From: Podospora anserina
Lineage: Eukaryota
Assembly: GCA_017654855.1 (NCBI GenBank)
Contig: CM030337.1
Coordinates: 1,488,001 to 1,552,000 of the forward strand
Length of the DNA: 64,000 bases
Direction: 5' to 3'
Shown here: piece after piece, positions 18,532 through 48,989 of the stretch
How the letters are laid out: every line of letters starts with the position of its first letter
Numbering within the stretch: position 1 is the stretch's first letter
Translations under genes and position numbers: made by a program
Notes under the pieces: generated by a model
What the model was told of the DNA's origin: nothing
What the model saw: only the letters and a program-made list of their open reading frames with translations
Database searches by the model: none

Positions 18532-19106
18532 GAAAGGGGTGGTCATGATGATGGATGATGAGGCATGGCTATTATGGGTACATATGTGAGCGGAGTTTGT
18601 TTTTGTTTTGCTTTTGAGGGGAAAGGGGGAAGAGTAAGATAGCGTGTATTGGTATTGTAATTGAGATATTTTTCATGGTTTTTATCACGAGGAGTTTCGA
18701 GGGCGTCAATGAGTGGAGATTATGATCATAGGTTGTGAGGTTCATTGATTATTGTCCACTTTTGATATCAGGGTTAGATGTTCTCATCACCAACCAGGGG
18801 TCGTAAAATTCCGGGTTATGTATGGCCTACGATCAGGGGGCCAGATTCAGGGGTAGGGTTGATCTAGACTAAAACAACAACAAACAGTTGGTTTCTCGAA
18901 CCTCTCCCTCCCTCCACTTTCCAACGTGACATGGAACTGCTGCAGAAGACATGTGTGTACGTACCTACCTACCTTGACCTACATATGCATTACGCATCCT
19001 GTGGCGGCGTCGCATGCAATGCAATGTAATGTAATGTGGATGTATGGTACTAGGTTACTAGTTACTTAACTTTTTCGCTGCGGTATTATGTAGTGCAGAC
19101 TGACAC

Positions 19107-19258
<152 letters not shown>

Positions 19259-25200: not shown

Positions 25201-28200
25201 GTTCGGCCGTTATTTGCGTGTTCGCGTCTTTCTTCGTAGCGTACAGAGCACTACCGGAGCTTCAGGACGGGCCCGACTCGGCACGTCCCCAGTTCGTATA
25301 TCTCCGAGACTTCCAGACGTCCTCCGTCCGTAGCCATGACCTGTCACGACCAACGCAGGTAACCGAGGCATCTCGACCTTGAATCCTTGAAGAATGCGAC
25401 GTGAAGCTCATGGAGGTGACAGCATGATCCTCGGCAGAGAGCTTCTCCGGCGTGTTGTTGTCAAAGGACAGTGATGAGAGTGGCATCTGCTGCTCCAAGA
25501 CACGCACCCACGAAGGGCCACACGATGCTCCCTGTAACCCCTGACTTATATTAGCCCAATTAAAGGGAGCAGTGGGTGATCTTGCCGTCGTCCGTCGGGT
25601 GTTGTCGTCTGGGCCCCGGCCCCAGGATGTGACATGGGATCTGATCAAATCTTGTTGATGCTCGGGTGGCCCCAGCTTGCGTCTTGGGGATCGACGTCCT
25701 GCACGATGTTACCCTCTTTGGCTGGCCCACGGGCATGTCGCACCAGACCCAACAAGGAAATCAATTAAAGTTTAGGGGTTGATGACTTACACGTACTTTA
25801 TCTTGACTTCGCGCCCACCCACCCCCAGATATCCGCGCTAGAAATCCATACTGTGGAGGATAATGCCTCCCCTTCCACATGATGCTTCCACAGGTGTTCA
25901 TTGCGCCGGACGCGCACCGTTGTGCGTGCTTTCATCTCGAGGTCTGTGCCTTTTTCTCTGCCAGGACATCCTGTAAAGAACAGCACCGGCGTGGAAAATG
26001 CTAAGGAGCCACTGGGGTGCCAGGGGGAGCACCACCATGACGGAACAGCATGCCACGCCCGCAATTTGTGCGCGCCGTGGAGGGGCGATCTGCCGTCCAA
26101 ATGAGAGTTCGCAGCACACGGTTTACCGACCTGTACCTGCCTCTATTGGGGCAAAGCAATCAGATTGTTGGGCGAACTCCTGCCGCACATATGCGCGTGA
26201 GTTGGGATGACGAGATTTGTGTGCTCAAACCGATGGAAGATGTTCGTGCTGTGTAACCAGCTTCCAATCGACTGAGACACCGTCTGCAGCTTTCATTGGT
26301 CGATTTTTGTGATTCGCTCCTGCGTGCTCCGGAGCTCTGGTGAAGTGCCATACTGGGAGTGGTGGGGTGGTTCAACCACCCTCAGCAATCCGACCTGATT
26401 TTTGTTCCGAGCTTCCAAGGTTGGTGTAGGTGGTCGGATGCTTCTAGGTTCCCTCCTCAGCAACCCGGAATCCCCTCTCATCCTGAGACGGCCGCCGACG
26501 TTGAGGTCTGACTCCCCGGAGAGGGCCCGGCTGTCCACCGTCGCCGTGCTTCGGAAATTTTGTGACGGCGGGGAGATCAGATAAAAGCGGTAAGGCTAAT
26601 GTTAGCGCATGTAGGGGACAGCTGCTCGGCACGCTCACGGCGGCTCCAAAACGGAAGAATGTGGCCACGGGATGGGCCTTCTCTTGATTGTGGGTGGGAG
26701 CTGCTTCTCATTTAGAAATCCACCCGCCCAAACGGCTCGCTTCCCGAGTCGAGCGTGCTGCAGGCAACGCATTGCCTGGCCGAATTGGGAGGGGCATGAT
26801 GTGTAACTCAAAGACCGGATGAAATGTGATGGACACCGGGACATTGGAAAGATCAGACGACTCGGTTAGGGCGAGGTTGGCAGAGAGGAGAGAGGGGTGC
26901 ACCGGTAAATCTTCGAGGAACCCCCGCCCACGCCGTCGGGAATCGGGATCCGTACGATAGCGGCCTCGCTGCCAGGATGGGGGCAAGGTGGGTACAGCAA
27001 AAAAGGTGTAACCGCCTAGCACTGCAACGCAAACGGTCACTAATGTAGCAGATGATGAAAAGATGCAAAGAGGTGTAAAGACTTTTCTTTGAGGGAGACG
27101 AAGAGCAAAGCGGAGATAAGCGTACCTATAGCATCGTCGATAACGCCCATGATCACCGTCAACCCAAGACAAGACCCCCTCCAAACTTGACACAGCATGA
27201 ACTCGGGAGATCCTTGGTGATGCTGTTGACGAAGGAGATTAGATCAGACTGTACACGATGGGTACACCACCTCGCCGTGGACCTGAGCGAGATGTCGTCA
27301 CAGCGGGCTGCTGCAGGTGCATATCCGCACACCCCATTTCTTCCAAAGCTGAAGAAAAGAACTTTTGATGTGCCCGTGGCGCTGACACATTCGAGGCACG
27401 GCCATGTAGGGTTTCAGAAGGGTGCATGTACTGGAGGTCAGCCTTGCACATATCACCCTCTAAATTGGTCCTGCTCGATAAAATACCTCACGACGTGCCA
27501 CATCTGGGGTAATTCCTGTCAAAAGCTGCGCGCCAAGATGAGGAAGTTGAGGTAACTCTTAATTACATTGATATTATTACCACAAGAGCATGCCACCACG
27601 GTGCCTTTACCAGTCTCCCAGTGCACTGCTGTACGGGTTTTTGGTAGCGGCACCTAGGTTGTCCCCCCATGCTCTGGTGCCCGGGTCCTTGTCAGGGGAG
27701 CTCGTGCTTGCCGGCATACCCCTCCAAGATCTCATGTTGGTGGTTCCTTCCGTCCTGGGACCGAAATGTCAAATTCTAACGGCAACTGTGACCCAGCTGT
27801 CGATAACCGGGGCAAGAACGGCCGTCCTACCCGTAATACTGGAAGGAGCAATCCATCACCTGAGCTGTCACCCCAGATTACTCCGTATCTACGTACACTA
27901 CTCTTCCCCGGATCGGCTCCCAGCGAGACAGGAATAGCTTTACTCACGTCTGGGTCCCTCCTCATCTCGCGCCAGCGGATCAAGATCATCGACATCCGGC
28001 CCCACCCCCGTCATCTCGGCGGCACTCGGAAGATAGCTCTTGTGGGCCCCTGTTGCGCATCCGTTCTGGATTTCCGGGGCAGGCCAACTCCAGACGGGAG
28101 TCTTGATACGGGACACGGACGCGTTGATGAACGTGCGAAGCTCCCTCTCTCTCTCAAATCTCAGTGCTGTCACTAAAAGAGACGATACAGCGGAGCGGCC

Positions 28201-29449
28201 CTGGGCCAATCGACGTCTCCCATCGGCGACCCGTCTGCATGGTGCGTTACTGGGTGCGTTGCCCAGCGTTCGGTTCCAACTGTCTGCAACGGCACTGGTG
28301 CACTGCTACCCAGTCTAGCTGTCGGTCATATTAACCGTAGCAGAAGTAGCAGGGAGGCACCCAGACGCCCAAAAAGTACTTACCCATTCCCTCCCACCGC
28401 AGCGACTGGGCTCGTTCTCGATTTTGAACCCTCCCCTCCCCCCCTCCACTGTCTGTGCCCTGTAACAGCCCTGAGATGACCGGGGGGTTTGCTGGCATTG
28501 TGGTTTACCCTTCGATTTGCAGCCATCCATAACCATCCACCTACCAGGGTGACCTGCCTACGACTATCCCTGCTCCGTCTGGCCCCATCTCAAATGCGCC
28601 GTTGCTCTTCTTTAAGTCGCACAAAAACCACCGGCTTCCACTGGCTCCAAATCTCTCCTTCAACCGACCGACTCTCACTAGCCGCCCAGCCTGAGAGCAG
28701 TATCACCGAGCATCGATATATACGGCACGACGACCACCCGGCACCTGGCACCTCTCCAGCACCTTGGGCACCAATCCATACGCGCGCCTTTTCACGCCTC
28801 CAGCTCCCCAGACGACGAACAGGGTGACGATACACTTCTTCTGCAGCTCTCCGATAGTCTTCCTCCAATCTTCGGTCATCTGGCGCAGAGCACTAACACG
28901 GTTGTGCGCGCTGTGCTGTGATACTCGATTCACCAGGACTCCCCATACCGGGAATCACCCTCTGCGTCATCGCTTGTCTGACAACCAGGCCTCCTTTCTC
29001 GTGCGTCTGCAGCCGACTCCTTCTCCAGTAAACAAGCGGCCGGTTCAGTTCGGCCGGATCCTGCTGTCGTCCATCCTCAAAAGGGGACCGCTGTCTTGGA
29101 CCAAAGAAGAGGCGCCAAAGGCCCGCCTCCGAAGCACTTGCCATCTCGCCCCACGTCAGACTTTTGCATCTTTTCGAAAACATCATAAAACCTCTTTCAG
29201 GAGACCCGCCAAATATTCTGGCCCCCGAGGACACCGGGCAGTGACACTCTTGAACTTGGCTGCATCGGGTAATGTCGATCAGCGTCTCTGGATCTGGGGT
29301 ACGGTCTGGAAGTTTGTCTCCCCAGGCGGAGACTTCCGTGAGACCATCGTGTTAACTGAGCTTACACCGACGCCGTCCTCATCGAAGCCCTCGAGCAGAG
29401 TTAGACGGTCCCCTTCCGGGCTCTTGGCTACGCCAAAGCCGCCTCCTCC

Positions 29450-32047
29450 ATGCAGCGCAGCCATCCAGGTGACGACTCCTGGACACCTCTCGGCCAACGC
29501 CGAGGGATATCAGACCTGGCGCGATCCGCCTTGAGTCTCGACTTGCACTGGGTCAGGGCAGACACTGAAAGTGCTGCTCGTCAGAGGAGCTATCCCTCTC
29601 CCCCCATGTCAGGATCTCCATCGATCCCCCCTAAACTCAGCCAGGAGGCAGCCGAACGGGCGCAGGGAAGCTATCAGCCCATCACGCAGGATGTTTACCG
29701 TGGAATCCCAACATCACAAGGTCACGAAAGGGCGCAGGCGAGCAACATAGCCGGACCTTCTCGGCAGTTCCTCACCGATCCACCAGAACGAACCGCATAT
29801 TCTTTCCCTCCACAGCAATCTGAGAGACCGGCACCTCAGCCTCTTACTTACTCCCATTTGTCCAGCCAGATCGGTGGACAACCAGGGCCGGCATATCTCC
29901 CAATCCCAGGCACAGGCAGTGCAGTTGGGCCATCGGGACAGCTAGCAGCTTCGCAAACCTATCCTTCAGCACTTCACTCACAGCTGCAAGATCCTCTTCA
30001 ACATAGCTCTGCAAAGGCGAGGAAGACCAAGGGGCATGTGGCATCCGCATGTGTGCCGTGCAAGAAAGCCCACCTTCGGTTGGTTGCCCCGTCAAAACCT
30101 GTTGGCATTGCCTAAAGACACGAGACTGACAGCTTGCAGATGTGACCGTAGGTACCCAGAGCCCTTTCGCCCCGATTGATCACAAGAAGCAGGACAGAAA
30201 TTGGACGCAGAGTGTGAGCAGGCATCGCCAACCCTGCGGCACCGCAAATGCGATCCCTGGTTTTGATTGACATGATATTGTTAACAATTCCGGGATTGTT
30301 TTAGGCGCGGCATCGACTAGCGCCTAGCACCAGTGTGATGCGGTATACCCCCATGAGCAATTTCTGTTTTTGGCACGGCATACTCAAGATGAGACGACCC
30401 ACTAGGCCAGTGACGAATGGGTTGGGAACTCTTGGGCCGCCCGACTGCAGGAACGGGTGGAGGTGGTTCTCAAGCGGGTTCCATGCTGTTCCGGGCCCGG
30501 GTAGGAGAATGCAGATAATCCAGCATGCTTATGCGTGGATGAGCTCGCCGACAGTTGGCTCGCTACTGCAGCGCGGATGCTTGGTCCTGCGGCAAAACCG
30601 GGCCGCTGCCCTCGAGGTGTGGTGGGATTCCCGCAAATACACGGCCCGGACGCCTCTGTTTCCACCATCGTTTTAGCCATGGTGGCGCCGAGATGGGAGT
30701 GGGCTTTGTCGATGAGGAATTCCAACTGCTTGTCCTTTCTGTTCACCAAGTACTTCGAAGTTGCGATTAGAGAATCTGCTGACTGTTTTCACAGCGGAGC
30801 GACCTTGTAGCCGATGTGTCTCTCAAAACAAGGCCGATCAATGCGTCGACGTCCAGCACAAGAAGCGCGGGCGACCCCGGCTTCGAGACGACAACCAGAC
30901 GAGATATGAAAGCGGGGGGAGGATGGGAAGTGCAGCAGAGGCCATGAGAAGGCCCTTGACATCCGTGTATGGCTCGGGTTCCACGATGGGTATGGTTCAA
31001 AGTGACAGTCTCCGACGCACTCAGTCGTATCGCGTGCTGAAATCTCAGCCAGCCGAATCAATCGCACCGAGATTCCTCGAACGAGGTTTGGCAGCTGATG
31101 CAAACGTTTTTCCAGCTCCCCTATCGATATCGACAACGAGGGTTCCCGAAGAACCAGTGGCATACTTGAGGGTTGTTGGCCTGGAGTTTTTGAAGGCATC
31201 GGCAACCTTCTACAGCGCCATAGGACGGCCGTCGAGAACGGGTTTCAAACTGCTGGAGGATGTACTTGCACCCGGTGATCGCGGCAAGGCCGAGAGAATT
31301 GACCGACAGACAAAGGAGGAGCAACGGAACAGAGAGATGGGACTGCCGGCCATGACGACCGTCGATGAGCAAGCCCACTTTGCTCAAAGACTCGGGTTCG
31401 GCGCAGATGACATTGCAAGATACCAGACAGACTGGAGGGTGGAGCATCTTACCTTTGAGGGAGAAGATGGTCAGCATCGACAATTTCCAACTCGATTTGG
31501 GCTGGTGAAGGAAGATTCGGTTTGGTTTGTCGTACTAATCCTCCAGATCCAGCCACCTAGACCATATCAGTACCCGACGCCCTCGCCGAACCCAAGAGAC
31601 AACACGTATCCTTATCAGCCCACGCCCCTATCGTTTTCCCAGCCCACGCCCATGTCAGCGACGTTCGATCCGAGGCAATCAAGGCTAGGAGAGCCTTCGC
31701 CCTACGGAGCGAGGCAGCCGATGGCCATTGGAGCCCCGCCACCATCGATAATGACGGGAAGGAGCCCTGGCCTTCCCTCAGGTTACGTCCCATCTCCAAA
31801 CAGGCCTAGCTACCCAGAAACGTCATCCTCCTACCAGGTACCCAGAAGCGAGATTCATCCTCCATCAAGTCGGCCGCCTCAGATGCAAGGGTACCAGCTT
31901 CCACCGTTGAACCTTGGGCCTTCCACGGGTCCTTCCCAACCGCAGCCACAAGAGAGGCAGTCTCGAGGAGATCGACCACGAGTTGATATTGGCGGTCTCC
32001 TTGATCACCCGGGTCACCCCAGGGATCCACCACCATCACAACAATGA
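29450..32047 (+). CDS. Zn(II)2Cys6 transcription factor with a possible PAS-like central region; exons 29450-30078, 30140-30147 (8-nt microexon), 30795-32047
   Basis: Spliced product reads ACVPCKKAHLRCDPERPCSRCVSQNKADQC followed by KKRGRPR. All splice sites are GT-AG with CTGAC branch points. Confidence 0.88.
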
Positions 32048-33547
32048 TGCTCATGATGAGATGGGCTATTCAAAGACCAGGATATGGGAGCGGCGGTGCG
32101 ATTTGCCGTGGGATGTCAAAAGCATGTTGTTGATCATTTTTTGGTTAGCTCCGCAGGTTTGGATGCAAGTTTCGCCGGGCAGGAAATTTCGTGAAGTTGA
32201 TCGCGCTTTCGAGTGGCTTTGCATAGATGATACCACTGTACAATTGGCAGAAGTTGTGGGCCGCGGTGCATTTTTGGGCGTTGGAATGTCTTTGTGGAGG
32301 ATGTTTGGGGCATATGCCATTGTGTGGCACTTTTCTCTCTTCTTTTTTGTGACTTTCTGTTTCTCTTCTGTGTTCTTCTTCAGACTCATTTTTCGCTTCT
32401 TTTCATTCTTCGACATCTTTTGACTTCTCTTCTTTGAGCACCGCCGCGGCGGGCTTGGTTGTTGGCTAGGCGGCACCGGGCTTTTTTTCTTCTTGTATGG
32501 GATTGTTATCCCTTTTCAGGCAGGCGGAAGGGATGCCGCGCTTTTTTGGGGAAGGATTATCTTTGGTGAACTTTTCTTGTATGAACTATAGTGTGGTGGA
32601 TAAATGCGGACATAGCGATTGGTACGTGTGAGTCGGAAAACCGGGAGTGGGAAAGGATATACTGGGAATTAACTGTCAATGTCTTGTTGGCTGTGTGCTT
32701 GGGAACTGTTTGTCGATGATGTTTGTTGTGTGTTGTGTGTATATGCTGCTGTCGTTTGGGTTGTTGTGAGAAGTGAAGAGGGGGGGGGAAGAGAACGAAT
32801 GAGATGGCATGGGAGATTCGCCTATGTCGGGTCGACATGATCATCCCGGGGTTCCTTCCTTTCCCCTCTCGTATGTATGCTGATATGCGGCCCGTCTGGT
32901 AGGCCGGCCCACCATCACTCATTCCTTTGCAGATCCGGACGGTCCAGGCCCAGCATGGGATCTTTTTTGGGAAATGAAATAGGAGGTGCGGTTGCTAATC
33001 AATAGATGTTGACTCGGAGTTTCGGTAACATGGCTCGAATGTGTGGGTGGTGATCTGATGGTTGTGTGGGGCAACCGTTGTTGAGATGGGGGGACGTTGA
33101 TTTAAGGTTGGTTTTTAGTCGACCGTTGGAAAGTTTGGCGGACCTCCTCCACCCGTTCCGCACATGCCACCTCTCCGTGCCGGGCCGTTGCTCAGGGGGA
33201 GGAGGGAATGGTGTGCCGACGGGACGTGCCGGTTGTGGGTACTGATCTGGGTCGTTGTTGAAGATCGCACACCCGGTGATGACGAGAAGGAATAGGAAGA
33301 AGTGCCCGGGGGGAATCAGACGACCATGGCGGCGGGTAGGTGTGTGTGTGTGTCGGATGAAAAGGGAAACGCCACATGTCTCTTCGCTTGGCCGAGGAGG
33401 GAAGGTCCTTTATTTTTCGAGGTTTTGCAACCAAAGGGCCCTTTTAGGTCGTACCCGAAATACGCGGGTGGAAATAGATTGCGGTGCCTTGCTGCTGGCT
33501 GCTTGCTGACATGAATGAATCCTGAATGTCGGTTGTCGGCACTTGCT

Positions 33548-33577
33548 TCCATCCATCCATCCATCCATCCATCCATC
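33548..33577. repeat. (TCCA)~7 microsatellite
   Basis: Direct reading. Confidence 0.9.
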
Positions 33578-34987
33578 CTTTTCCTTTCCCCCAACACATC
33601 GTTGACATAGGCAGTTGGTTTTTTGGTGACGTCGAAAGAGTCGAGAATTGGACCGCTGCCGGGTGGATTCTATGGGGACGGGTCAGGTATTAATATCGAT
33701 AGCGTCAGAAATTCCAAATAGGAGATCGGGCTGGGTGAATCATGTTGTGGTCTCGCTCGGGTCTGGTTGAAGGAGACGGCCGGCTGGCTGGCTGGCGCTC
33801 GGTCGGTCGGTGTGTGTCGGTCGATCGGTGTAATGTGAATCACTTTTCTTTTCTTTTCCTCATCACCCGTGTTGAAGGCTTGGGGTGTTTGTGAGACCCT
33901 TTTCGCAAACAAGAAACGAAACGGGAAGAAACAAAAAAGTGAAGCAGAGAAAGGGAGGAGGAGGAAGGCATGAACAAGTAATGAACATTTTCAAGTAGCA
34001 CCCAAAAATAGGGGTTTTTTTTGTTGCTCTCTGTCCAAGGCATATATATCAGACTTTCAACCATCCTGACATGTTATAATAACACAACATCCAAGCAGCA
34101 TGAATAAAGCATGCCCGCCAAACCGCACGATCCCACCAACCCATCCCCGATCCGGCCACCCCAATGAAACGACAATTCCCAAAAGGAAAGAAACGTTGCA
34201 GCGGACCGCTTGGAAGGTTGCTTCTTTTGGCTTGGATCTTGTTTTTTTGGCCCGCTGGTTCAAACCGGTGAAAAGAAGAATGGAGTGCAGGGGATTGGTG
34301 CGCATGTGAAAAGAAAAGGGAAACCCCTTCAACTTACACTATATAAAATATCATCGTGATCGTGGAAGTTGCATCGGAGATTTTTATTCCCAATAGAAAA
34401 TGCCCCGACGCAGCGCTCGATCGGTCGCGGCGGCGGCAGGGCCGTTTACGCTACCCACTGTTGAGATTTTGGAGGCGCATGAGCCATTCGGAGATTTTTT
34501 GGTTCAATTGCTTTTTTTGTGGGCGCGACAAGAAGAGGGTCAACAGCGGAAATGCAACAGTGGACAGGGTTGGCAGGGCCCAACTTGCTTGGTCGTCCAT
34601 CCGTTCATATCAAACCAAATCTGGAGGTGCAGCAGAGAGGTGGTGCTGATCCAATGACGCTGTGGGAAACGGATAGGGCAGGCAGTTGAAGGAAAAAAAG
34701 GGGCCAACCAAGGACTGACACGATTGGTCTGCAGGCTTTTGTTCACTTTGAGATACAGAGGTAAAACACGGAGGAGAATAATAGGATGGTGAGACACAAG
34801 TTCACATTATCCTGATAAAACATGCTTCGTGTTCGCTACCTATAAACTATGAGCCGCCTGATATAAGTGCACCGCTGTATCTGAGTACATACTAGAATTA
34901 TCAAACGACTCTGCAACTTTCTATTATAAGAAAACCATCTCACTTGCCCAACAAACCCTTCTCAAAAACACACCCCAGTCAGAAATG

Positions 34988-35757
34988 TCACCTCCTCCGA
35001 TCCTCCTCTGCATCACCTTCTCCCGACTGCCCTTCGATTGGTCTCCCACTTGTGCCAGGCACATTCGTTGACTGCTGTGGCGGTAACCTCCTCGACACGG
35101 ACCGAATAGGCAATGTTCTCCTATTCCCAATCACCACCGTCTGAGGATCCGACTGGAATAACGGATCTTGTTGTCTTTCCGGAGACAAAATTCGATCGAT
35201 GTCATCAAAGTCTGCCACGGATATCGATGGAACCTCCGTGGGGGCAGACGAAAATGGGAAAGATGTCGTTGGTGCTTCCGTAGATGGAGACATGAGCTCG
35301 AGTTCCTCCGTCATTCTATCCCTTTTTGCATAGCGTTCTTCATCTTCATCGATAGTCTCACTGTCATATGGTCGTTTCTGGCCCGAGTGGACGCCGCCAG
35401 AGGTCAAACCCAGCAAGACATCCTCGTTAGGAAGTAATGGGTCCTCTCCGGATTGTCGAAGCAAGAAGTCGATCGACAGTTGGGAGGATTGCGAATTCGA
35501 CTGGCTTGGATGTTGTTCAAAAGCCGGTTCGGGCTGTGATGGTGAAGGTAGTCTTGATGGTGTTTGTGAGGGGCCGGTTGCGCTTCTCCCCCTGTGATAG
35601 GTGAGGATGAGCACCATGGAAAGCGAGATTTTGCCGGGTTAAAGTCTTACCTGTTGCTGAGAGCATCAAGCTGAACTTGGACTGACGAGTTGGCGTCACT
35701 CCCATTGGGGTCCGGACTCGAAAGTCGGGGAAATGGTAGTCGTGAGTCGTTTGACAT
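34988..35757 (-). CDS. Orphan acidic/Ser-Pro-rich protein of ~236 aa; exons 35757-35651, 35591-34988
   Basis: ATG in good context (GTCACAATG). A GTAAGA..CTCAC..CAG intron joins in frame to the 34988-35617 ORF. Contains GQKRPYD...AKRDR (NLS-like). Confidence 0.6.
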
Positions 35758-37174
35758 TGTGACTTGAGGCGAGTCTGTGAGATGTGATGGATATAGTCAA
35801 GAGTGGAGGTGTGGGGGAAGCTGCACACTAAATGCAGATCTGAAGGGAATCGATTGCCGAGCGGGGAGGCTCTGCATATTTATGAGGACAAAAGAGATGG
35901 GAGAAAATGTAGGTAGAAACAAAAAAAAAAAAAGACATGCAATGCATAGCAAAGAAACGAAACGGAGGGAAACCGGACGTTGCCCGAGAGACTGCAAGGC
36001 CCGCCCAGCTTGTGAGCCCTCCAGGAAGCCTGGAAATCACAGGGCTGCATCCATTTCCCCCCCTAGGTGAAAAGCATTTGGCATGCACCTAGTTGGCACG
36101 GTAGGGCATCGTGCAGCGGGTGTGTGATGCACGCAAGAGCGGGAGCGGCGCGCCGCCTAGTTGGGTGAATGCAGAAGCCATCACACAGTCACACCCGCCT
36201 CTTCAACGGCCATCAAGAATGGCCCGCTGGCCACTGGGCCCCCCTGTTGCCCATCCACCCAGTGCTACCACATGCACATGGCCCGATGGCACATCACAAA
36301 GATGGGCTTCGACACATCAGAAAAGCCGGGTAGGAGACATGCTTTGCACTGGCGCAGCACTCCAGCGGTCTTCACCTAAAGGCGAGGTCGGTCTTGATCT
36401 TCTCCATCATTCAGTTTCGGGCCATGGGCGAGATGGGATTAAATGGAAGCCTGGAGATCTTGGAGACCTCAAACGATTTGAAGGTTGAATTCGAGCCCTC
36501 CGAATTGGGCCGGGAGGTCGTTTTGTTTCCGCGAGGGCAAAGGAACCGTGGCTAAGCATCGAGCTGACTTTTCTGCGCCCTCTCCTAGAACCGATTGATC
36601 TCCAATTGCAGTGGCTTAAGCGGCTCAAGTAGAGGTTGGGGCCGCGATTATGGCCTTGAAATATGACAAATGGGGTAAAGGCGGAATTGTTGGTCTGCTA
36701 TGCTCCAAATATGATAATCAAGTTCGGACTGCTGTATCTGAAGAGCCTGGTGGGAGAAAAACACAAAAGAGAACGTCGGTTGTGGCTGTGGTGTTTTGTT
36801 GGTTCTTGAACAGTTCGGGACTGGTCGATCGAGGTCGGGTTCCCTCCACGCCAAGCATTTCCATTATCAGCACGCCAAGATATTAGTCCTAGAGTGGGGT
36901 GACAGGCCCCTGAACCGAGCGGGCCGGACGGTGCACGAACAATCCGGGGCAAGCACGGTCCACCCAACCCCGGCAGGAAGAAGGTTCAACGGTGAATGCC
37001 TAGCAGAACTCGGTGTGAGCCTTTCATCGGCTGTTCTTTCCTCTTCTCCCTGTCCAGCTGAAATGTTAAGGTAGGGGTGAAAATCTGGATGCCTGGATAA
37101 GACCTTGACGAAATCCTCCTGCTCTTTCTCCGCATCGCGCTTTTCTTCCGCGTCGAACATTCAACGGCGCCACT

Positions 37175-39573
37175 ATGAGTGATGCAATGGAGGTGGATTC
37201 CGAGGTGGATGGGCCTCGCGGTGCCAAGAGGAAGGCTGATGCTCTTGACGACAACACCCCCCAACGTCGAATCAAGGTACAGCTCCCGACACCATCTTTT
37301 TTTGAGACGAGCTGCACTAACAGCATGCTAATAGCCCCTGGACGAAGATGTCATCAACAAAATTGCTGCCGGGGAAATCATCGTGGCTCCCGTGAACGCC
37401 TTGAAGGAGTTGATGGAGAACTCTGTCGACGCGGGATCAACTACCGTAGATGTGTCGGTGAAAGAGGGAGGCTTGAAGTTACTACAGATCACTGATAATG
37501 GCTCTGGCATCGAGGTTCGATCCCCCCTGTTAGCGTCCGCTATCACCCGCTCGCTTCCTCGCCGCCCCCTTCATCCCCCTTGTTCCGAGTGGTTACTCAT
37601 CAAAGAAACAGAAAGAAGATCTGCCAATATTGTGTCAACGTTTCACGACGTCCAAGCTCCAAAAGTTTGAAGACCTCCAGACCATCGCTACCTATGGTTT
37701 CAGAGGCGAGGCCTTGGCCAGCATCAGCCACATTGCCCATCTTACCGTGACCACGAAAACACGGGACTCAGAGTGTGCCTGGAGGGGTCACTATGGCAGC
37801 GGAGTGTTAGTCCCAGCCAAACCTGGCCAGTCTCCTGACCCAAAGCCCGTATCTGGCCGACAAGGCACCCAGATTACCGTTGAAGATTTGTTCTTCAACG
37901 TTCCTACAAGACGGCGTGCGTTTCGATCACCAGCCAACGAGTACAACAAAATACTGGACATGGTTGGGAGATATGCTATCCATTGTACCGGTGTGGGGTT
38001 CACATGCAAGAAACATGGCGAATCATCCAAAGGCATCTCCGTATCTCCAACAGCGCCATGTCTGGACAGGATCAGACAAATCTACGGCGCAAGCGTTGCC
38101 AACGAGCTCACCGAATTCGAGACGAAAGATGATCAATGGGGGTTCAAGGCAAAGGGACTTGCCACCAACGCCAACTACAGAACCAAAAAAACTACCTTGC
38201 TGTTGTTCATTAATAACAGATGTGTTGAGTCAACCAACATCCGCAAGGCACTCGAGCAGACCTATGCGTCATTCCTCCCTAAAAACGGTCATCCGTTTGT
38301 ATACCTCAGCCTTGAGATAGACCCACGCCGGGTCGACGTCAACGTCCACCCAACCAAACAAGAAGTCAACTTTTTGAACGAAGACGAAACCATTCAAGCA
38401 GTATGCGAACACTTGCGCTCCAAACTAGCCGAGGTAGATGCCAGCAGGACCTTCCTCACCCAGACCCTCCTCCCAGCAAGCAGCCGGGCTGCCTCCTCCA
38501 CTCAACTGCCACCAGCCCCCTCTGCACCCTCTATGGCGACCCCGGCTTCCAGTCGAAGAGCCCCTCCTAGAAGCGACACCAGCCTCGTCAGGACAGACAC
38601 TAACCTTCGGAAAATCACGAGCATGCTCCCCCCTGCCAGACCAGGCGGCAGCACGCCATCCCGCCCAGGCCCAGAGCCCATGGAATTTGACACGGCACCC
38701 GAGCCTCGTCAGCCCACATCTTGTCATTTGCACAGCATCAAAGAGCTCCGCGCAGAAGTCCGCGAGGAGATGCACAACGAGCTCACTGATATCTTTGCCA
38801 ACCACACTTTTGTCGGAATTGTTGACGAGCGCCGCAGGCTGGCTGCTATACAAGCTGGCGTTAAGCTCTACATGATTGACTACGGCCGGGTGTGTTACGA
38901 ATACTTTTACCAGTCGGGCTTAACAGATTTCGGTAATTTTGGTGTGGTACAATTTCAGCCTCCTCTTGACATTCGCAACCTACTGTCATCGTCCCCAAAT
39001 CTCCTCACTGAATATGAAGAAGAGCAGGATGATGATGAGGAAGAGGACATTGACCCCGAAGAAAAGGCCGAGATCATCGAGGCTGTGGTGGAGAAGTTGA
39101 TTGAGAGAAGAGAAATGTTGCTGGAGTACTTTAGTTTGGAAGTATCTCCCGCGGGAGAGTTGTGCAGTGTGCCGCTGTTGGTCAACGGGTATGAGCCACC
39201 TTTGACAAAGTTGCCAGGGTTCTTGGTGAGGTTGGGGCCTTGTGTCAACTGGACGGAGGAGAAGGCTTGTTTTGAGAGCTTCCTGAAGGAGCTGGCTAGA
39301 TTTTATGTACCAGAGAGGTTGCCGCTGAAGAAGGTAGCCAAAGAGGAGGATGATGGGACGCTGGATAGTGCTGATGAGAGGGAAGAAGATAGTAAAGGGG
39401 AAGAGGAAAAGAGGATTGATGCGAGGAGGAGAAATGTGAAATGGGCGTTGGAGCATGTGCTTTTCCCGGCGTTTAAGGCGAGGCTGGTCGGGACGAAAGG
39501 CATCATGGAGGCTGGGGGTGTGGTGGAGGTGGCGGATTTGAAGGGGCTGTACAGAGTCTTTGAAAGGTGTTAG
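37175..39573 (+). CDS. MLH1: DNA mismatch repair protein MutL homolog 1; exons 37175-37276, 37335-37514, 37612-39573
   Basis: [45 protein letters not shown] and the invariant C-terminal FERC. Confidence 0.97.
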
Positions 39574-40634
39574 GTAATGGATGTTGAAATTGGGGTTGTT
39601 GGGGAACATGGGTAGAATATACGGGGATGCTTTTCAATTTATTATTGATCATGCCTGGCATTTGTATGTGCACAACCATGTACACGAGCAACGACCATCA
39701 GGTAGGTAACATGTGAAATTAACTGAGGGCTACTTGCGGCTGCCTAAAGTTGTACACAACCTTCCATTTTCACAGACCAAGACCTGATGGAGGAAGGTAC
39801 GAGCGGTTCAACGTATCCCTTCTTTACTCCAACGCCTGCCACTCAAATCTCAATGGCGTGCCCGTTGGCCTTGACTTTTTGGAACGTGGGCTGATGAGAA
39901 CTCTCGCTGTTCGTAAGTTCTATCCCTACCTACCTCGATCTCCAACCACCCAGAACTTGGACAGATGGCATGGAATTAACAGAGTTATAGGAGCAAATGG
40001 TAGGTTGAATGTAATCTCTGGGGTCCGGCTGGCACACTGCCTTTAGGCGGGCATCTTTTTTGTTCGGGGCTCGAGGTTTCATTTTTCTCCCCCCCAAGGT
40101 CCCCAAACCAATCCTGGATGGCACAGTGGTCCCTTATGGCATGCGAAAAATGTGAGATGGTTGAGGTAGTGATGAATTGTAAAATAACTGCTAGGTAGGG
40201 TCAAAGGCAGATAGATATGCGCGTGGTTGATCTTGGTGCTAGGCAAGGCTTGACTTGCAAATTCCTTGCAATATGAGGTCCGCAGATGCTGGTGTCCTGG
40301 CTCATATTCCCTTTGTGATTTCTCATGAGGACAGCCCTCGATTCGGCCCTCAGTGTAGCAATTCCTCCGTTCCTTCCATGTTCAGTTTTGGCGATAGCTT
40401 CATTAAAGGAGCCCTGCAAGGGCAGCTGAACTAACATAGGTAGGTACGAGACATCCGATTGACCTAGAATCATAGGTTTCCCGGCGGGCAAGGTAGGCTG
40501 TCGGCTGATGCGTGCGGATGTTATATGACGATTGGCTCAGATCACCTCCTCCGCCCGAGTCGTTCTTGGACGTGTATTGTTGGGTTAAGCATCGAACGTC
40601 CAATGGCACGTTGCTCTTGTACAAATGCGCCTTT

Positions 40635-41831
40635 TCACACCGCCTGAACTGTACTATGGTGGTTCAAACAAGACAAATCTTTGCAAACAGGCCATATATT
40701 CCCAAACCGGCTTATATCGTCGTCGAGATGGTACGAGTCGGGGTCCATTACGTGGAGCCATGAGTGCGATGGATTGAATCGAGCTTTCCCGTCACGCCCA
40801 TACCTGACTGACTGACCCCTCTGCTCCTGCATTGTTTGGTCCGTCAGGCCCCTTAGGTCGGACCAGAGGCCGGGTGTGATACCCCGCCGGTTATGTGAAA
40901 AAATTACTGCACCCAAGAAAGTGATCCGTTTGTCTGAGACGAATTCTAGCTGAAACTTCAAGCTTCTCTCATGTTCGGGATTTTCGCAGGCGATAAGCTG
41001 TACAGTGGCTGCCTTTGCCTCTCGGAAGATATCCACCTCAAACCAAGAACCGACCATCTGGGGCTCTTTGGTCAGAAGATCAATTGCATGGGTCTCTATA
41101 TCAGCCCAGCTGACTACCCGATGCTTGCATATCCTCACCACCCCCGTCCTCATGATGCAAATCCGTTGGCTACCTTTTACCTCCCTCTCTGCGGTTGAGA
41201 ACATTCGGTGGTGGTGGAGAGTATCGCAGCCTGAGCAATACAGTGGCCCAATCCCCTTGACGTGATGGCTTTCAAACTTGCAACGATCCCAGAGGCGCTT
41301 GCCAGACGGGTGACGTGGCACAACCCTACCATCCCTCATCATTCGGAGATCGTTCCGTGGCAAGCACGTCTTGCAGAGTAGGTCTTTGCGAAGGCAATAT
41401 CTGATGGCGTCTTGGGCACCGCGAGTGCGTATGTAATTGGACGGAGGCTCAAAACCGTATCGGGAGCTGAGGATGGCTAAGCTGGGCCAGAGTGGCCCCG
41501 CCAGATCGTGTTTTATGATACGTCGTAGAACTTGAGAGACACGACCGAGGCAGAAAACGGCCGCTACGTCGACAGCAAGATCCAGGTTGAACCTTTTCAC
41601 AATTTCGAGTATGAGCTCTTCGGGGAGTTTGAGTAGTCGGCTGTGTTCGCGATTGTGAAGTCTGGTCACCATGACAGGATCTCTCGTGTCATGAGCAGCC
41701 GACGCTTCAGGATCATGTGGGGAGTGAACAGCCGCCTCGTTCTCGGAAGAGTTGGCAGTCGATTCGGATTGTTGATGGTTGTCTTCCGGCGGTTTCGGTC
41801 CCTCTTGGTGGGGATTCATCTTGTCCGTCAT
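40635..41831 (-). CDS. F-box domain protein with Cys/His-rich central region (398 aa)
   Basis: SRLLKLPEELILEIVKRF is an F-box signature. Also LCKTC and YCSGCDTLH...RIC...RICKH. Single long ATG-initiated ORF. Confidence 0.65.
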   Translation of the reverse strand: MTDKMNPHQEGPKPPEDNHQQSESTANSSENEAAVHSPHDPEASAAHDTRDPVMVTRLHNREHSRLLKLPEELILEIVKRFNLDLAVDVAAVFCLGRVSQVLRRIIKHDLAGPLWPSLAILSSRYGFEPPSNYIRTRGAQDAIRYCLRKDLLCKTCLPRNDLRMMRDGRVVPRHPSGKRLWDRCKFESHHVKGIGPLYCSGCDTLHHHRMFSTAEREVKGSQRICIMRTGVVRICKHRVVSWADIETHAIDLLTKEPQMVGSWFEVDIFREAKAATVQLIACENPEHERSLKFQLEFVSDKRITFLGAVIFSHNRRGITPGLWSDLRGLTDQTMQEQRGQSVRYGRDGKARFNPSHSWLHVMDPDSYHLDDDISRFGNIWPVCKDLSCLNHHSTVQAV

Positions 41832-42289
41832 GATAGAGAAAGGGAGTTTGATGGAGCTTCCGAGAGATACTGGATGTTGCTGATCCTAACTCTGTCGATA
41901 AGTCGCCCTGTCGCTTGATGCTTCAACGAATCTCGGCGGTAAGGATACGTCCGGGGAACTGACATCAAAGGATGACGAGAGAAACAGCAAAGAGTTTGGA
42001 ACTTTCAATAGGCTGCAAGAATTTGTAGGGTGTGGCTTTCAAATATCAAACTGTATTCTTGTTCCAGCCCAGGGCTTGCACAAAGTTTCTGCCTGGTTAT
42101 CCACCCCGTGGCCCTGCTCCCCAGCCTCCATGCCGCCATTGTCAAATCTAGTGCACAACTGCGCCCACAGAATTAAATTCAAACAGTTTTGGCTTTGTGG
42201 CTCGAAAATATCTTTTCAATTTGACGCTTTCCGATATGGAGCCTATCAGGTTACTGGGTCTGGTTGGAAACAAGGTGCGGCAGGAACTG

Positions 42290-42897
42290 GTATGGCAGTG
42301 ACCTCAAGACCTTCCTGTCCCTTCGAATCTGTACCCAACTGAAAGAAACAGTAAAATTCATCAACGACAACGCCATAGCCAAACGAAGAGGGCTAAGAAC
42401 GCATCCAGGAAGAAGAGGGACCAGAAGGCCGGTTCAAAAATGGGGAACCCACAACCTTTGTATGTGGCGGCAAACTGTGAAAGCAAGCCCCGACTCTACA
42501 CGAAATTACGTTGGCACAAAGTGTGGCAAGCAATGGTTGGAGCAGTAGTTATACCTTAATTGTTTTGCGTTAATCCTTCTCACCAGAGACAGCAAGCAAA
42601 TCCAGCCGAAGAACTCTGGCAATCGAAGCATCAAGAGACGAGCCAATATCCATTCAAATCCAAGAATGCAGGGAGCAGGCATATAAATATGCTCTCGAAG
42701 CGGTGCAATTACCGCCCATAAACCCACAGGAATATCAAGCGCGCCTTGAGAGGGAGTTTGACGAGGCAATGGAAGAGCGTAGGAAAAAAAGGATTGAAGA
42801 GACCATACTACAGCAAGAAAAACGAGGTCTGAATGTGAAGGCGGGGGGACGCGTGACTTGGGCCAAGGAAGAAGAAAATGAACTGGAAAATGAGTAA
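42290..42897 (+). pseudogene. Possible relic of a charged coiled-coil protein gene
   Basis: The frame 42587-42897 reads as E/R/K-rich helix (EYQARLEREFDEAMEERRKKRIEETILQQEKR) after an acceptor-like CTCACCAG. Upstream frames do not splice into it without a stop. Confidence 0.3.
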
Positions 42898-43528
42898 TGA
42901 CTCTGCCCGGTGACGGGAGACAGTCCAAAGCAGGATCATCTGGACCATCAAGGTTGAGGTAGAGATTGGTATAGAGAGCATCGGTACATTAAATAAATTA
43001 GACATCCAAAGTCAACAACCTCTTCACCCTGAGATCCTGACGTGATTTGATTACCTTGATCGCGGACTGTTAAATCTCTAGATTCTTTGTTTGATTAGCT
43101 GGTCCAAGAACTTCATGAATTAAATTCAAGGTCGACAGGAGCCATTGATTCAATAGTGAACTTCTTGGTGTGTATCAAGTCTCCCAGCTATCAAAGTTAG
43201 GAAGTAACCATCTATTTATCTATCCAAGCTTTTACTCTTTATTGTCTAATTTTCGGATAGATATTATCTAAACTTTTCATATCTAAGATCCAAGCTTACA
43301 ACTTATTTCCACTTTGAGTCAAACGACGTATCTTGACACGTAGCTCATCTGTGGGAGGTAATACTCCTGTGGGATTAGTCAAGCAGGTTGCTCCAGGGCT
43401 TCGGCCTTGAGGCCCACTTGCCAATGTGAAGGATAAAGAAAGGTTTTTGCTCTCCGGAGCTGTTTGTTTTAGTACCCAATAATATCATAAACTATTTTAC
43501 AAATCCTCGCAGCCGTATAATATCATTA

Positions 43529-45373
43529 ACGTAGATTATAAGCGAGTGACCCACTTCCTTCGTAACATAATACCTTCGCACTCAACAACAATTTCCTTAA
43601 CCATCCAAGATGCCTTCTAATTTAAATGAAGCCCATATAATTTTAGCCCTCTAAACACTTTAAAACGACAAGAATCTAAGCAAACGAGCCGTAGCTAAGA
43701 TCTATAGAGTCGATCGTAAGACTCTAGGGCGTCGGCGCGCTGGCTGGCCTGCACGACGTAATATTACGCCTATATTAAAAAAACTTACTTAATCCGAAAA
43801 GGAAGTTATTATTTAATACATTATTAAACTATATACGTAAGCTTTTTTACTAAAATTATATAGTATAAAAGATATAGCTAATTAATTATTATACGTACGC
43901 GACGCGCCTCTTATTAGTAAGCTCTAGGTATATAACTTCGTTAAACGTTAGTTATAACTCTATACGCGTTTTACATATAAATACGATTATTAAAGGACTA
44001 AGTACGAAAATTTAAAGGTTATTACCGAGTAGTTTACGCTTATACGGAATATTAAAGCTAAATATAATATTATAAATAATAATATTTATAATTTCGACGA
44101 AACTAGGTTTATAATAAATATTATTTTTATAAATATAGTAATTATAATCTCGAACAGCTTTAATAAAATAAAACTAATTTAGTTTAATAACCGCGAATAA
44201 GTAACTGTAATTTAAAAAATTAATATCCTTGGTTAGGCTATCCCACCTTTTATTATTTTAATCGCGTAATATTATTTTATTAATTAATATATTAAATATA
44301 ATTTATTATTTATTTAATATATTATAATTATTAATAATAATTAAATTATTAATATAATAAATTTAAATTAAATTAAGTATTTCGATTATTATACGGCGCC
44401 CCGTATAAAAAGTAAATACCAGTTATTAATCTTCGATAATTATAAAAGTTATTACTTAACCGAATTTAAGTATTATTATTAATAAAATAATATTATTACG
44501 TTTTATATACCTTTATATTCTTCCTACTTCCTTTAGTTACTCGATATTAATTACTTTAAACCGTTAAAATAAATATATAATTATTAAATCGAGGATTTAA
44601 TATATATATATATTAATTATATAAATAAGTTCGAGTTCCTTTATACTTTCCGCGAAACCTTTTTCGCCTTTATAATAGAGAAAAATATATAAAGAAGCTT
44701 TACGGGTACTAACTTTATACTATATAATTTAGAGAAAGTATTTTTTAAACTAAATATAAAGCTTCGTACGTTAATACCTTTAAACTTACGGCTCGGTATT
44801 ATATAACCTTAGGTCTCTTAAATACTATATAACTTTCGAGAAACTAACTTATAGTTAATATTTATTAAGACTCGTATTATTAATTATTAAAATAGCTCCC
44901 CGACTTTAATATTAATTACAGTAAACTAATTTACTAAAGATATAACGGTTATAATATATTAGGTGGCTCTCTTTCGTGCAAAGGTCTTTTCGCTCCGTAA
45001 GGCTAATAAGGCACTAAGTAAGCGCCGGAGAACCAAAAAAACACGTGTAAGGCTTGGAGGGTCACTTACTATATAAGAGGTACAGGATCTACTAGATCAG
45101 AAGGCTGTAGATAGGGAGGAAGTGTAAAAAACGTAGCTAGATAGTAGTAATATAGGAGGAGATCGTGCGAGGGTTCGGTGCTATAGTGTGTGCGGCAAGC
45201 CTAGCCATAACGCGCGCACTTGCCAAGAGGCTGGGGAATCATCTGATTCAGCCGTTTTTAATATAATTGTAGTTACTTCCTAGTGTTATTGCAGTATAAT
45301 TGAGGATAGTTTGTTACGGTGTGGTGGGAAGTGGGTCACTCGCTTATATGGGTCACTCGCTTATAATATACGT
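43529..45373 (+). mobile_element. Fot1/pogo-family (Tc1/mariner superfamily) DNA transposon, 1845 bp, inactivated by RIP
   Basis: TA duplication at 43527-28 and 45374-75. TIRs ACGTA[G/T]ATTATAAGCGAGTGACCCA. Interior is strongly AT/TpA-rich. Confidence 0.93.
43610..45283 (+). pseudogene. Degenerate Fot1-type DDE transposase
   Basis: N-terminal HTH-psq-like sequence (IILAL*TL*NDKNLSKRAVAKIYRVDRKTLGRRRAG), a decayed YNFDETRF motif and a C-terminal zinc knuckle (C..VCGKPSHNARTC). Many TAA/TAG stops. Confidence 0.9.
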
Positions 45374-45743
45374 TATATTGAAATAGTGAGAAAACACACA
45401 AGACAAAACAACCACAACACCACAAATATACCCTTAACAGGTCCCTGAATGAACACACCTGCGTGACAGTGACTCGCTCGCAGGCCGCACTTCACGCAGG
45501 ACAAAGAAAAGACACTATGGGCTCGCAGGCCACATAATAAGCACCGAATTGGCCTGATCAGAGGACCAGAATTGCCTGCACGCGTGCAAGGCACAAAATA
45601 CGAAGAAAAATAAAAGTCGATGATTTGTCTAAAATAGAATGTCCGAAGCAGACCGCTTATATACATGACCCCTGAACCCCTGAGTCCTCCGAGAGCCCCG
45701 CTTCCTTACTCATACTCTCAGGCCTGTGGCCGCACCCCAAACC

Positions 45744-45788
45744 AGTACTTAGGTAGGTGACCACTGGGGAATCTTCGGTGTTATATGT
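45744..45788 (+). rRNA. Truncated 5S rRNA gene (3' ~45 nt only; pseudogene) with Pol III T-run
   Basis: AGTACTTAGGTAGGTGACCACTGGGGAATCTTCGGTGTTATATGT+TTTT matches the Pezizomycotina 5S 3' end pattern AGTA..GGTGGGTGACCAC....GAATCC....TGTTGTATGT apart from transitions. No 5' half was found in the window. Confidence 0.8.
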
Positions 45789-46084
45789 TTTTAAATAAAA
45801 AATAAACTTTTTTTAAATTTATTTTTTACTTATTTTTTAATTTTTTTTTACATATTTTTTACATATTTTTTACATATTTTTTTACTTATTTTTTACTTAT
45901 TTTTTACTTATTTTTTTTAGTTATTTTTGATTTATTTTTGATTTATTTTTTACTGATTTTTTATTTATTTTTTATTTATTTTTTATTTTTTTTTTATTTA
46001 TTTTTGATTTATCTTTATTTATTTTTTATTTAAATTTTTTTATTTATTTTTTTTTTATTTAATTTCTTTTATTTAATTTTTTTT
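45789..46084. repeat. ~300-bp T-rich low-complexity tract of degenerate TTATTTTT/TTTTACATA/TTTTACTTA units
   Basis: Almost G/C-free with a strong T bias on the + strand. Confidence 0.95.
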
Positions 46085-46592
46085 GGCAGTGTTATTCAGT
46101 GTTAGGCTTCGAGTAAAGTGTGATTAAAGGTACTTTTGCGGCTCTGCTGGCTGCAGTTCGGTGTACAAGCTCACTATCCCATAGATAATCCTTCAGCTGT
46201 GATTTGAAAACGAAACTTTCGGTGGTCTGTGCTGACTTTTTCTCCTCTGGACTTCAAAAGGCTCTTAACGTGGGAAAATAGCCCTCGAGAGTGTATTAAT
46301 TGAGCTAAAAGCAGTCTCCCGTCGCTATGGTTACATAGCCGTGCTGTCGAGAGATGGAAAGAAAGCCTTGGCAAATGCTTTCGAGTCCTTTGCCTTCTGT
46401 GACGAACCCCTGTACAGAACCTCTGAAAGGGATACTGGTTGAAGGTAACTTCTGACAATTGGTTCGGTGCAGCTAAACAGTGCACAACAAGATGTCTCAA
46501 TGTAAACACAAGATACCGTGAAAACAATTGTGAATTGCATACTGCGGAACTGTCTATCTACACCAGCCGGTTCCTCCATATATATAGACCTG

Positions 46593-46690
46593 TTTATCAC
46601 CATTATCACCAGTGATAATGTCGATTATCACTCGTCGTTCACCGAAGGCTGGTGATAATCGCGATTATCACCCTTGGCGCTAGTGATAAT
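46593..46690. repeat. Cluster of seven RGTGATAAW motifs arranged as inverted pairs
   Basis: CATTATCAC-ca-GTGATAATG, AGTGATAAT-gtcg-ATTATCACT and the perfect 22-bp palindrome GGTGATAATCGCGATTATCACC (46651-46672). Confidence 0.85.
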
Positions 46691-47223
46691 CTGACTTCCC
46701 CACTTTTCCCTTCCTAGTGGTTGGACGGGTCGCGCCCCGCGCTCCCCACTTATGTCAGGTCCGTGACACCTTCCCGTTTGCCCATATTACAAAAAACTAT
46801 TTAGAGGACAATCCAGCATAGCAGAAGAAAAAGCTAGCACGGGCCACCGAAAGTTTTGTTTTTAAATTTACGGAGGTACAGTTTTATTTAAAAGGAAAGT
46901 TGTGATTGGTTGGAACTGGCACTGTGCGGACCCTTCACTTTTGGCACGGTGTTGCCGACCTGCTTGGTTTGAACCTCAGCATCAGGATACACTGAGCCGC
47001 GGGGAAAGCAGGTGGAATACATCCATCCGTGTGTATATTTCATCAGGCTGGTTCTACTTACGTCTAGCTTCAATTCTTTTGCACGGTTGAGAATCTTATT
47101 GATGTGGAGGTTGCAGAGGCGTCGACTAAAAGTTTTTGACTCACTCGGCGAGCGTTTTCCAAGGCCCAACAGTCACTCATTATCTTAACCTCGACCAGTG
47201 GAAAGAGCGACCAAACTTCTCAC

Positions 47224-48989
47224 ATGCACATTCGACTGGGAATCACACAGGGATTCCGGTCGTTCAGGCACCCGCCTCGAGAGCTTGGTAGCGTTTTCTT
47301 TCTGATGAAACGCAGGTACTGCGACAGCACATCGAAACATAGCTTATCCTCCCCACCTGCTAAGAAACATCGGCCATATACCGCAACAATGGTTTCCCGC
47401 ACCATCACCCTCACCGAGCAGGAAGAACAGCTCAAGCGCCTCCTTGTAGACGTCGCGCGCTACATTGACTCTTCTTCCAGCGAGAACAGCCCGACTATCC
47501 TCCGCTGGGCTGGTGGCTGGGTTCGCGATAAACTACTTGGAATTAAGAGCCACGACATCGACACGGCTATCAACAACTTGACCGGTGAGGCCTTCGTTGG
47601 AAAGCTTCGTGACTATGTCGAGATCCCAGGCAACAAGCAGCTACACAACCTGATGGACTCCGACATTGGCCGCCTTCACACTGTGGCCCGCAACCCAGAC
47701 AAGTCGAAGCACTTGGAGACCAGCACCATCAAGCTCTGCGGGTTGGACGTGGACTTTGTGAACTTGCGGAAGGAAACATACTGCGAGAACAGCAGGAACC
47801 CCGAGGTGGAGTTTGGGAAGGCCGAGGAGGATGCTGCTCGCCGAGATGCGACCGTCAATGCTCTCTTTTACAACTTACAGACGGGCGAAGTGGAGGATCT
47901 TGTCGGGGGTCTGCCAGATCTGGGGGCGGGGATTATTCGGACACCAATGGAGCCACTGCAGACCTTCATGGACGATCCCCTTCGTGTATTGAGACTGGTG
48001 AGGTTTGCTAGTCGACTGGGGTTCAAAATCGACAAGGCGGCAGAGGAGGTTATGGCGGATGAGAATGTGCTGAGAAACTTGAAGATCAAGATCAGCAGGG
48101 AGAGGATTGGTGTGGAGTTGGAAAAGATGCTCAAGGGTAAGATCCAGACGACATTTTACAGAAGTGAAAGGCACAATAATGCTAATATTGTCTTTCAGGC
48201 AAACACCCGGTCGAGTCCCTGAGGCTGATCAACAGGTTGGGGCTTTACCATGCTGTGTTCACTGTACCGGAACGAACCGACATGCCAAAGCCAGATATCT
48301 CCAAGTGGGACCGCGCATATGAATGCTTGGTCTTCCTTGAGAGCAACAACACTCCTGGTTCCATCTGGGAGTTGCTCGTCACCACAGAGGAAGCGAGATA
48401 TTTCGCCTGGTCATTGGCCACCATCACGCCTTGGGAGCAACTTCCTGATGATCCCCCTCTCAAGTCAGGAAAGTTAGCCATGCCCCTTGCTACTCAAGCC
48501 GCGAGGGAAGGATTCAAGGCACCCAACAAGCTATCTGACGTGATCACTGCCGCCCATCGGCACCGTCCTGCTATTCTGGAGCTCAAGGCACTTGTTGATG
48601 AGAACAAGGATGAAATGAAGGATAGGGCAAAGTTTGGTATGGCGATCAGAGAGTGGGACTCAAGAGCCAAGGGTAGCTGGCGTCTACAAGTTCTTTACTC
48701 GATCTTGGTTGATGTTCTAGAAGGATCAACGAGCCGGGAAGAGATTCTGATGGGATGGCTGCGTTTCTTGGACCACCTGGTAGAACTTGATCTGATGCAT
48801 GTCACGAAACTCGACAGGATCATTGATGGAACTGACCTCTCGAAGGCACTTGGAGTTAAGCCAGGGAGGTGGATGGGTGCGGCGCTCGAAGTTGTGATGG
48901 AGTGGCAGTTAAGGAACCCAGGGGTCGAGGATCCAGCAGGAGCAGTTGAGGAGGTGAAGAAGCGGCGGGTTGAGTTGGGGATTAAATAG
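47224..48989 (+). CDS. CCA1: CCA tRNA nucleotidyltransferase; exons 47224-48136, 48199-48989
   Basis: RWAGGWVRDKLLG..SHDID, DVDFVNLRKETY, EEDAARRDATVNALFYN, DDPLRVLRLVRFASR and KISRERIGVE. Confidence 0.95.

Follow-up and report, generated by a model that had tools for sequence, protein, structure and literature searches.

What left part of a 5S ribosomal RNA (rRNA) gene standing alone between MLH1 and CCA1 in Podospora anserina? The fragment lies in a stretch of 64,000 nucleotides (nt) (assembly GCA_017654855.1, contig CM030337.1, positions 1,488,001 to 1,552,000 of the forward strand), which is called the window here. Positions are counted from its first letter, and the features are collected in Table 1. 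An initial annotation of the window had taken the fragment for one terminus of a degraded 5S-inserting mobile element, fused to a decayed gene. What we find is an orphan 5S piece that is without its gene front, has drifted by transitions and is functionless today. Its break falls inside the 5S-derived repeat of a published Starship, a member of the giant transposons of fungi. Our tentative reading, to which we give slightly less than an even chance, is that the locus keeps what is left, after long decay, of the distal junction of a Starship targeting 5S.

The identity of the fragment comes from comparison with eight full-length fungal 5S genes. In blastn against the window, 5S nt 75-120 match 45744-45789 at 41 of 46 positions, with an E-value of 1.5e-9 for five of the eight queries, while the other three match shorter stretches at the same place. 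Over nt 68-120 (45737-45789), 45 of the 53 positions are identical to fungal 5S. All eight mismatches are transitions, and seven of them are C>T or G>A. A permissive Rfam scan of 45400-46100 also placed the 5S family RF00001 on the plus strand at 45722-45789, with 18.2 bits where the gathering score is 38 (E-value 0.54 for 701 nt against 4227 families). The score stays below the level of a full-length 5S gene of ~120 nt, and what is present is nt 68-120. The homology to the 3' domain is followed by a T-run at the position of the RNA polymerase III (Pol III) terminator, and the aligned full-length genes end in a T-run like that of the fragment. These searches bear out the earlier statement that the 3' part of a 5S gene stands on the plus strand.

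The similarity stops sharply at nt 67/68: the 45 identities in 53 positions downstream face 9-11 identities in 30 positions upstream (ungapped, nt 38-67). Judged from the alignment, homology probably begins at nt 68, which is position 45737, just 5' of the AGTA at nt 75-78; this breakpoint could be a few nt off, because the reference 5S genes come from metagenome contigs of soil fungi and not from this species. The limits given in the initial annotation, which had the gene cut at about the AGTA loop, were revised to this extent. The reference genes were retrieved with an 18-mer copied from the fragment. It is shared by 15 metagenome loci, nine of which hold 5S genes (65-95 bits), including the eight full-length ones that were used as queries. 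The other six loci show no 5S similarity outside the 18-mer.

The 5' half of the gene is absent, as had been reported. There is no other RF00001 match in 39500-47200 or in the whole 64-kb window, and the eight full-length queries give no further blastn match with E<0.05 in the window. Some candidates for it were considered and rejected. A 14-nt box motif gave 2 matches, against 5.6 expected by chance, and the match at 1475 is not 5S. A 12-mer at 46177-46188 (+), ~390 nt downstream of the fragment, is equal to 5S nt 45-56, but with an E-value of 0.34 and 13 of 44 surrounding positions identical we judged it a chance match. The covariance model put 45722-45734 on nt 1-13 with 53 positions deleted, which would make the fragment a 'mini-5S' with an internal deletion, and by our own count 8 of the 9 helix-I pairs are possible when wobbles are included. 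We rejected this as a forced global alignment because 6 of the 13 letters match the fungal 5' end.

Published 5S-targeting Starships were then compared with the break. Gluck-Thaler and Vogan (2024, PMC11162782) curated 222 Starship insertion sites, 23% of which are in 5S rDNA, at no fewer than five distinct internal targets. Family 9, called Arwing, is one of three families found mostly in 5S, and its core motif is CCCG/GGGC. For example, the starfish-annotated Starship pyrory2_s09328 of Pyricularia oryzae, assigned to fam09, has a DUF3435 captain and the direct repeats agtgagggccgaactagtactc and agtgagggcaaaagtagtac (table S7 of the same paper). Both correspond to nt 60-81 of 5S; as far as GGGC (nt 68) they are the same, but not beyond it, and we therefore place the crossover at nt 68/69. 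According to an overlapping annotation of terminal inverted repeats (TIRs) on the plus strand, the repeats given for elements on the minus strand follow the orientation of the element. From this it follows that the 5S sense runs with the element, so that the captain is at the 5' side of the 5S gene and the captain-less distal end at its 3' side. Since the window holds the 3' part of 5S, which in the published element adjoins the captain-less end, a missing captain is expected here. The missing recombinase, which had been read as a hint of an undescribed family, loses that meaning. The same paper states that Arwing elements can insert in either direction, and in its lists fam09 is represented by a single captain in P. 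anserina S and by three captains in P. comata; one P. comata captain is that of a 15.6-kb element (podcom1_s08798) which P. anserina lacks. In the parts of the literature covered, PMC8092012 among them, no Starship of Podospora was found described as targeting 5S.

As for machinery, the initial annotation had found no recombinase in the window, and neither did we. Six-frame Pfam analysis of 39600-47200 gave DDE_1 only in the search for a tyrosine recombinase, and no DUF3435 captain, by which a Starship would be recognised, was found in a selection of 47 among the 135 open reading frames (ORFs) of the window that reach 110 amino acids (aa). The Pfam results for these 47 ORFs were MatE, Npa1, Eap1, Lon, Mlh1, the CCA-adding enzyme, Tti2, a SacI-domain protein and FSH1.

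Left of the break there are 361 nt of non-5S sequence. Neither this flank nor the junction has a second copy within the window, and the indices of repeat-induced point mutation (RIP) are normal in the flank. At the junction the minus strand has a single ORF (45376-45705, 110 aa), which contains CxxC words; a search of 5.8 billion proteins found no homologue of it, and its Pfam match is only at chance level. The ORF grows from 110 to 120 aa upon in-silico removal of the neighbouring transposon, and a minus-strand host gene relic was rejected on the absence of a homologue and this gain of 10 codons. The TATA that had been noted near the junction does exist as a TATA-like word. Measured from the hypothetical 5S start (45670), it would occupy -15 to -7, and most of the eight compared fungal 5S genes have theirs farther upstream, near -32 to -24 (our own reading of the upstream sequences). 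It was therefore rejected, being out of register, as the upstream box of the 5S gene itself. The 73 nt from this word, taken here as 45655-45663, to nt 68 are not 5S-like. Because of this spacer and the register of the TATA-like word, a plain deletion in a 5S gene misfits.

The decayed gene of the block was also reassigned. A multi-exon, minus-strand relic of a Cys-motif gene fused to the junction had been proposed. Beyond the 110-aa ORF without homologue there is no such gene, and the decayed coding sequence is the transposase of a RIP-wrecked Fot1/pogo element on the plus strand, which was inserted 363 nt from the junction and is unrelated to it. This relic is a bystander and not part of the 5S event. 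Its TIRs at 43527-43558 and 45327-45375 (22-27 nt) are 96-100% complementary, and a TA duplication flanks it on both sides. All 37 stops in the transposase frame are TAA or TAG, and no intact ORF is left that would make the element autonomous. Read through these stops, the frame matches Pfam DDE_1 with 22.2 bits, and its C-terminus carries a Cys/His word, CYSVCGKPSHNARTC. A phmmer search of 1.84 billion representatives gave 3593 matches at E<=1e-3. The full-length relatives of 551 aa have E-values of 1e-103 to 1e-113 (best 7.7e-113), and among the top six relatives, which were scanned, DDE_1 and HTH_Tnp_Tc5 are present in all six and HTH_psq in five. The domain architecture was tested in this way, and the family names Fot1 and pogo are those which we take to go with it.

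The composition of the transposon shows how it was destroyed. Its interior has a GC content of 0.14-0.27. In 43800-45000 the ratio (CpA+TpG)/(ApC+GpT) is 0-0.38 and TpA/ApT is 1.1-1.7, compared with 1.2-1.3 for the first index in the flanks. The CpA/TpG depletion, the TpA excess and the GC drop are thus those of RIP, and they are confined to the repeat. At its right end, 45332-45365 is a perfect 17-nt tandem duplication (TGGGTCACTCGCTTATA twice) that is absent from the left end. The 3' coding end of the transposase (45231-45261) and the 3' end of the 5S piece (45764-45794) are 74% identical over 31 nt, including CTGGGGAATC and GTTTTTAA, which is probably chance.

Under the Starship reading, a dispersed 5S gene directed towards CCA1 would once have had its place between CCA1 and the F-box gene of Table 1. 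An element with site specificity, in all likelihood an Arwing-type (family 9) Starship, would have integrated at the GGGC core, 5S nt 65-68. The remnant would be an attR-like junction consisting of the last few hundred bases of the captain-less end (~45376-45736), 5S nt 68-120 and the terminator. Later deletion would have removed everything else of the element, including the tyrosine-recombinase captain, together with the 5' part of 5S. The Fot1/pogo transposon would then have entered a TA that is 363 nt away from the junction, to be destroyed by RIP. The agreement between the break at nt 67/68 and the crossover at nt 68/69 deduced from pyrory2_s09328 argues for this reading, and so do the expected geometry and the presence of the Arwing family in the Podospora lineage. 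The proposal of the initial annotation is kept here in its general part, the scar of a 5S-targeting mobile element, which has its one support in a break inside the Arwing 5S repeat (nt 60-81); the specific inferences attached to it found no support.

Several points weigh against the Starship reading. A Starship has two boundaries and one junction is seen here, with no captain, 5' half, partner repeat or inverted end in the 64 kb. The 9 nt left of the break (GCCGCACCC) match the Pyricularia end, which mimics 5S nt 60-68, at 2 of 9 positions in our own comparison. Nearly all of the element must be missing, because MLH1 and the junction are at most ~6 kb apart and this interval includes the F-box gene, which is native to the lineage. 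The sole described P. anserina Arwing element has the repeat TCTC and not a 5S repeat. The match to the target was recognised post hoc, and a random break has a probability of ~18% of falling within nt 60-81. The lost element is at most a candidate Starship.

The closest rival is ordinary decay, in which the first 67 nt of a dispersed 5S gene disappeared by non-specific deletion, rearrangement or untidy double-strand-break repair, and the position of the break is a coincidence. We regard this as possible but rather doubtful. The gap holds three other kinds of junk, namely the pogo relic, a MITE-like element (MITE, miniature inverted-repeat transposable element) and a T-rich satellite, and mobile-element machinery and a second junction are both lacking in the window. 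Of the 87 5S loci reported for this species, 72 are full length and the other 15 partial (PMC2441463). On the other hand, ordinary decay has to accept that the break lies where the crossover was independently placed from a published Starship that targets 5S, and that the stretch from the TATA-like word to nt 68 has neither the length nor the sequence expected after a simple deletion.

It is improbable, in our estimate, that no 5S gene was ever at the site and that the piece is a 5'-truncated retro-copy, or filler captured from 5S RNA or DNA. Retropseudogenes have a complete 3' end and a missing 5' end from abortive reverse transcription, and the piece has such ends, with a 14-nt A-rich stretch (AAATAAAAAATAAA) after the T5 run. 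However, no target-site duplication was found around the 5S piece, the A-rich stretch belongs to a long AT-only low-complexity array from which it cannot be told apart, and the T-run is as long as in genomic 5S genes. Far less probable still is that an undescribed or non-autonomous family inserting into 5S has its captain-side terminus here, with a first gene that encodes a Cys-motif protein in place of a tyrosine recombinase. The TATA-like word and the 110-codon minus-strand ORF with its CxxC words do begin ~30-70 nt from the junction, but the ORF has neither a homologue nor a credible Pfam family, the 10 codons are all that it gains from transposon removal, and the decayed coding sequence of the block belongs to the pogo transposase on the other strand. 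The first-gene reading is largely refuted by these results.

The surroundings agree with the earlier description of a block between MLH1 (37.1-39.6 kb) and CCA1 (47.1-49.0 kb), both of which were identified by Pfam. The F-box protein is 92% identical to QC764_602930 of P. pseudoanserina and 41-56% identical to proteins of Cercophora samala, Triangularia and Apiosordaria. The ORF itself has no Pfam match at E<=1, and its protein cluster contains 5 named Podospora species. Because it is found in five species of the P. anserina complex, with relatives in three other genera, we consider the gene native to the Podospora lineage, and these matches also put the window in that species complex. Among 24 sequencing runs listed, 19 (from 6 studies, all with one organism label) contain 0.78-0.87 of the words sampled from 39600-47200, a share that speaks neither for nor against polymorphism at the locus. 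For the 107-codon ORF the sole match is a 64-aa Logan ORF of the same species. The T-rich array begins 14 nt past the 5S terminator, and it may have grown from the T-run of the terminator by slippage. The MITE-like element, between the 5S piece and CCA1, contains internal GTGATAAT...ATTATCAC palindromes and no ORF with a Pfam match. Taken together, the locus is a dead half 5S gene in a junk-collecting gap. Farther away, 19000-36000 (~17 kb) has normal GC and ORFs of up to 443 codons (e.g. 30716-32044) with no Pfam family at E<=0.001.

Table 1. Features of the window discussed in the text, with positions counted from the first letter of the window.
Feature	Position	Strand	Basis or remark
MLH1, left neighbour (outer limits of ORF pieces)	37109-39573	+	Pfam Mlh1_C 2.4e-101 and DNA_mis_repair 4.3e-34 on ORF 37534-39570
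F-box protein gene	40635-41885	-	protein homologues
107-codon ORF	42574-42897	+	without conserved homologue, without Pfam family
Fot1/pogo (Tc1/mariner superfamily) DNA transposon, RIP-wrecked, ~1.85 kb	43529-45373	+	TIRs, TA, DDE_1
Transposase reading frame, 561 codons	43610-45292	+	37 stops, no frameshift
Non-5S flank, 361 nt, candidate distal end of lost element	45376-45736		between transposon and 5S piece; not RIPped, no gene
TATA-like word, readable on both strands	45655-45665		out of register as 5S upstream box
Decayed 5S rRNA gene fragment, nt 68-120	45737-45789	+	similarity to fungal 5S genes
T5 run, Pol III terminator position	45788-45792	+	after 5S nt 118
T-rich tandem array, 279 nt, period 11/22/33, ~6% GC	45806-46084		begins 14 nt after 5S terminator
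MITE-like element, 666 nt, 45-nt inverted ends 84% complementary	46202-46867		between 5S piece and CCA1
CCA1 (tRNA nucleotidyltransferase), right neighbour	47140-48989	+	Pfam PolyA_pol 8.6e-25; tRNA_NucTran2_2 weak
tRNA-Val (anticodon AAC)	14579-14654	-	58.8 bits; sole RNA gene in window reaching Rfam gathering score

The single locus adds little, as it is dead DNA, the kind of element proposed has already been described, and the adjoining 'gene' is an ordinary RIP-killed transposon. If the Starship reading is true, half 5S genes would be cheap and searchable markers of past insertions, even where the machinery is gone, and a survey of their breakpoints across Podospora would reveal how frequently these elements arrived and were lost again. 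A wider conjecture, which we consider unlikely, is that the ~15 partial 5S copies of P. anserina are mostly footprints of one Arwing-like Starship lineage recombining at the GGGC core of nt 65-68, and that this locus keeps the distal recognition end of the extinct element. From the partial 5S copies taken together, the arrival and loss of giant transposons in a model fungus could then be dated, and the signal of the element's captain-less end would be contained in the 361-nt flank.

When compared with known systems, the transposon next to the junction has nothing unusual. It is the same as the fungal Fot1/pogo elements inactivated by RIP in its DDE_1 domain, its length of ~1.85 kb, its TIRs, its TA, its TAA/TAG stops and its RIP-type dinucleotides. 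The 5S fragment itself would be one of the 15 partial copies counted in P. anserina (PMC2441463), for which the consulted parts of that paper give neither breakpoints nor a cause.

The closest likeness is with the Arwing element pyrory2_s09328 (PMC11162782). The break in the window is inside its 5S-derived repeat, at the GGGC core, and the 3' part of 5S is expected beside the captain-less end, as found. The two differ in that the window is without a captain, assignable cargo, a second junction and, left of the break, a recognisable repeat copy. In Macrophomina phaseolina, Voyager (PMC9156397) is likewise a giant transposon, and it always splits a dispersed 5S gene. The entry point of Voyager is 20 bp from the 5S start, whereas the window has its break at nt 67/68, and empty sites of Voyager are segregating. 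The last comparison is with Osiris, of the Enterprise family, and a 'degraded Starship' in a 5S-rich hotspot of Aspergillus fumigatus (PMC12153272). Although these belong to another family and host, are polymorphic among strains and still carry captains, there too 5S genes were fragmented and degraded remnants were left behind.

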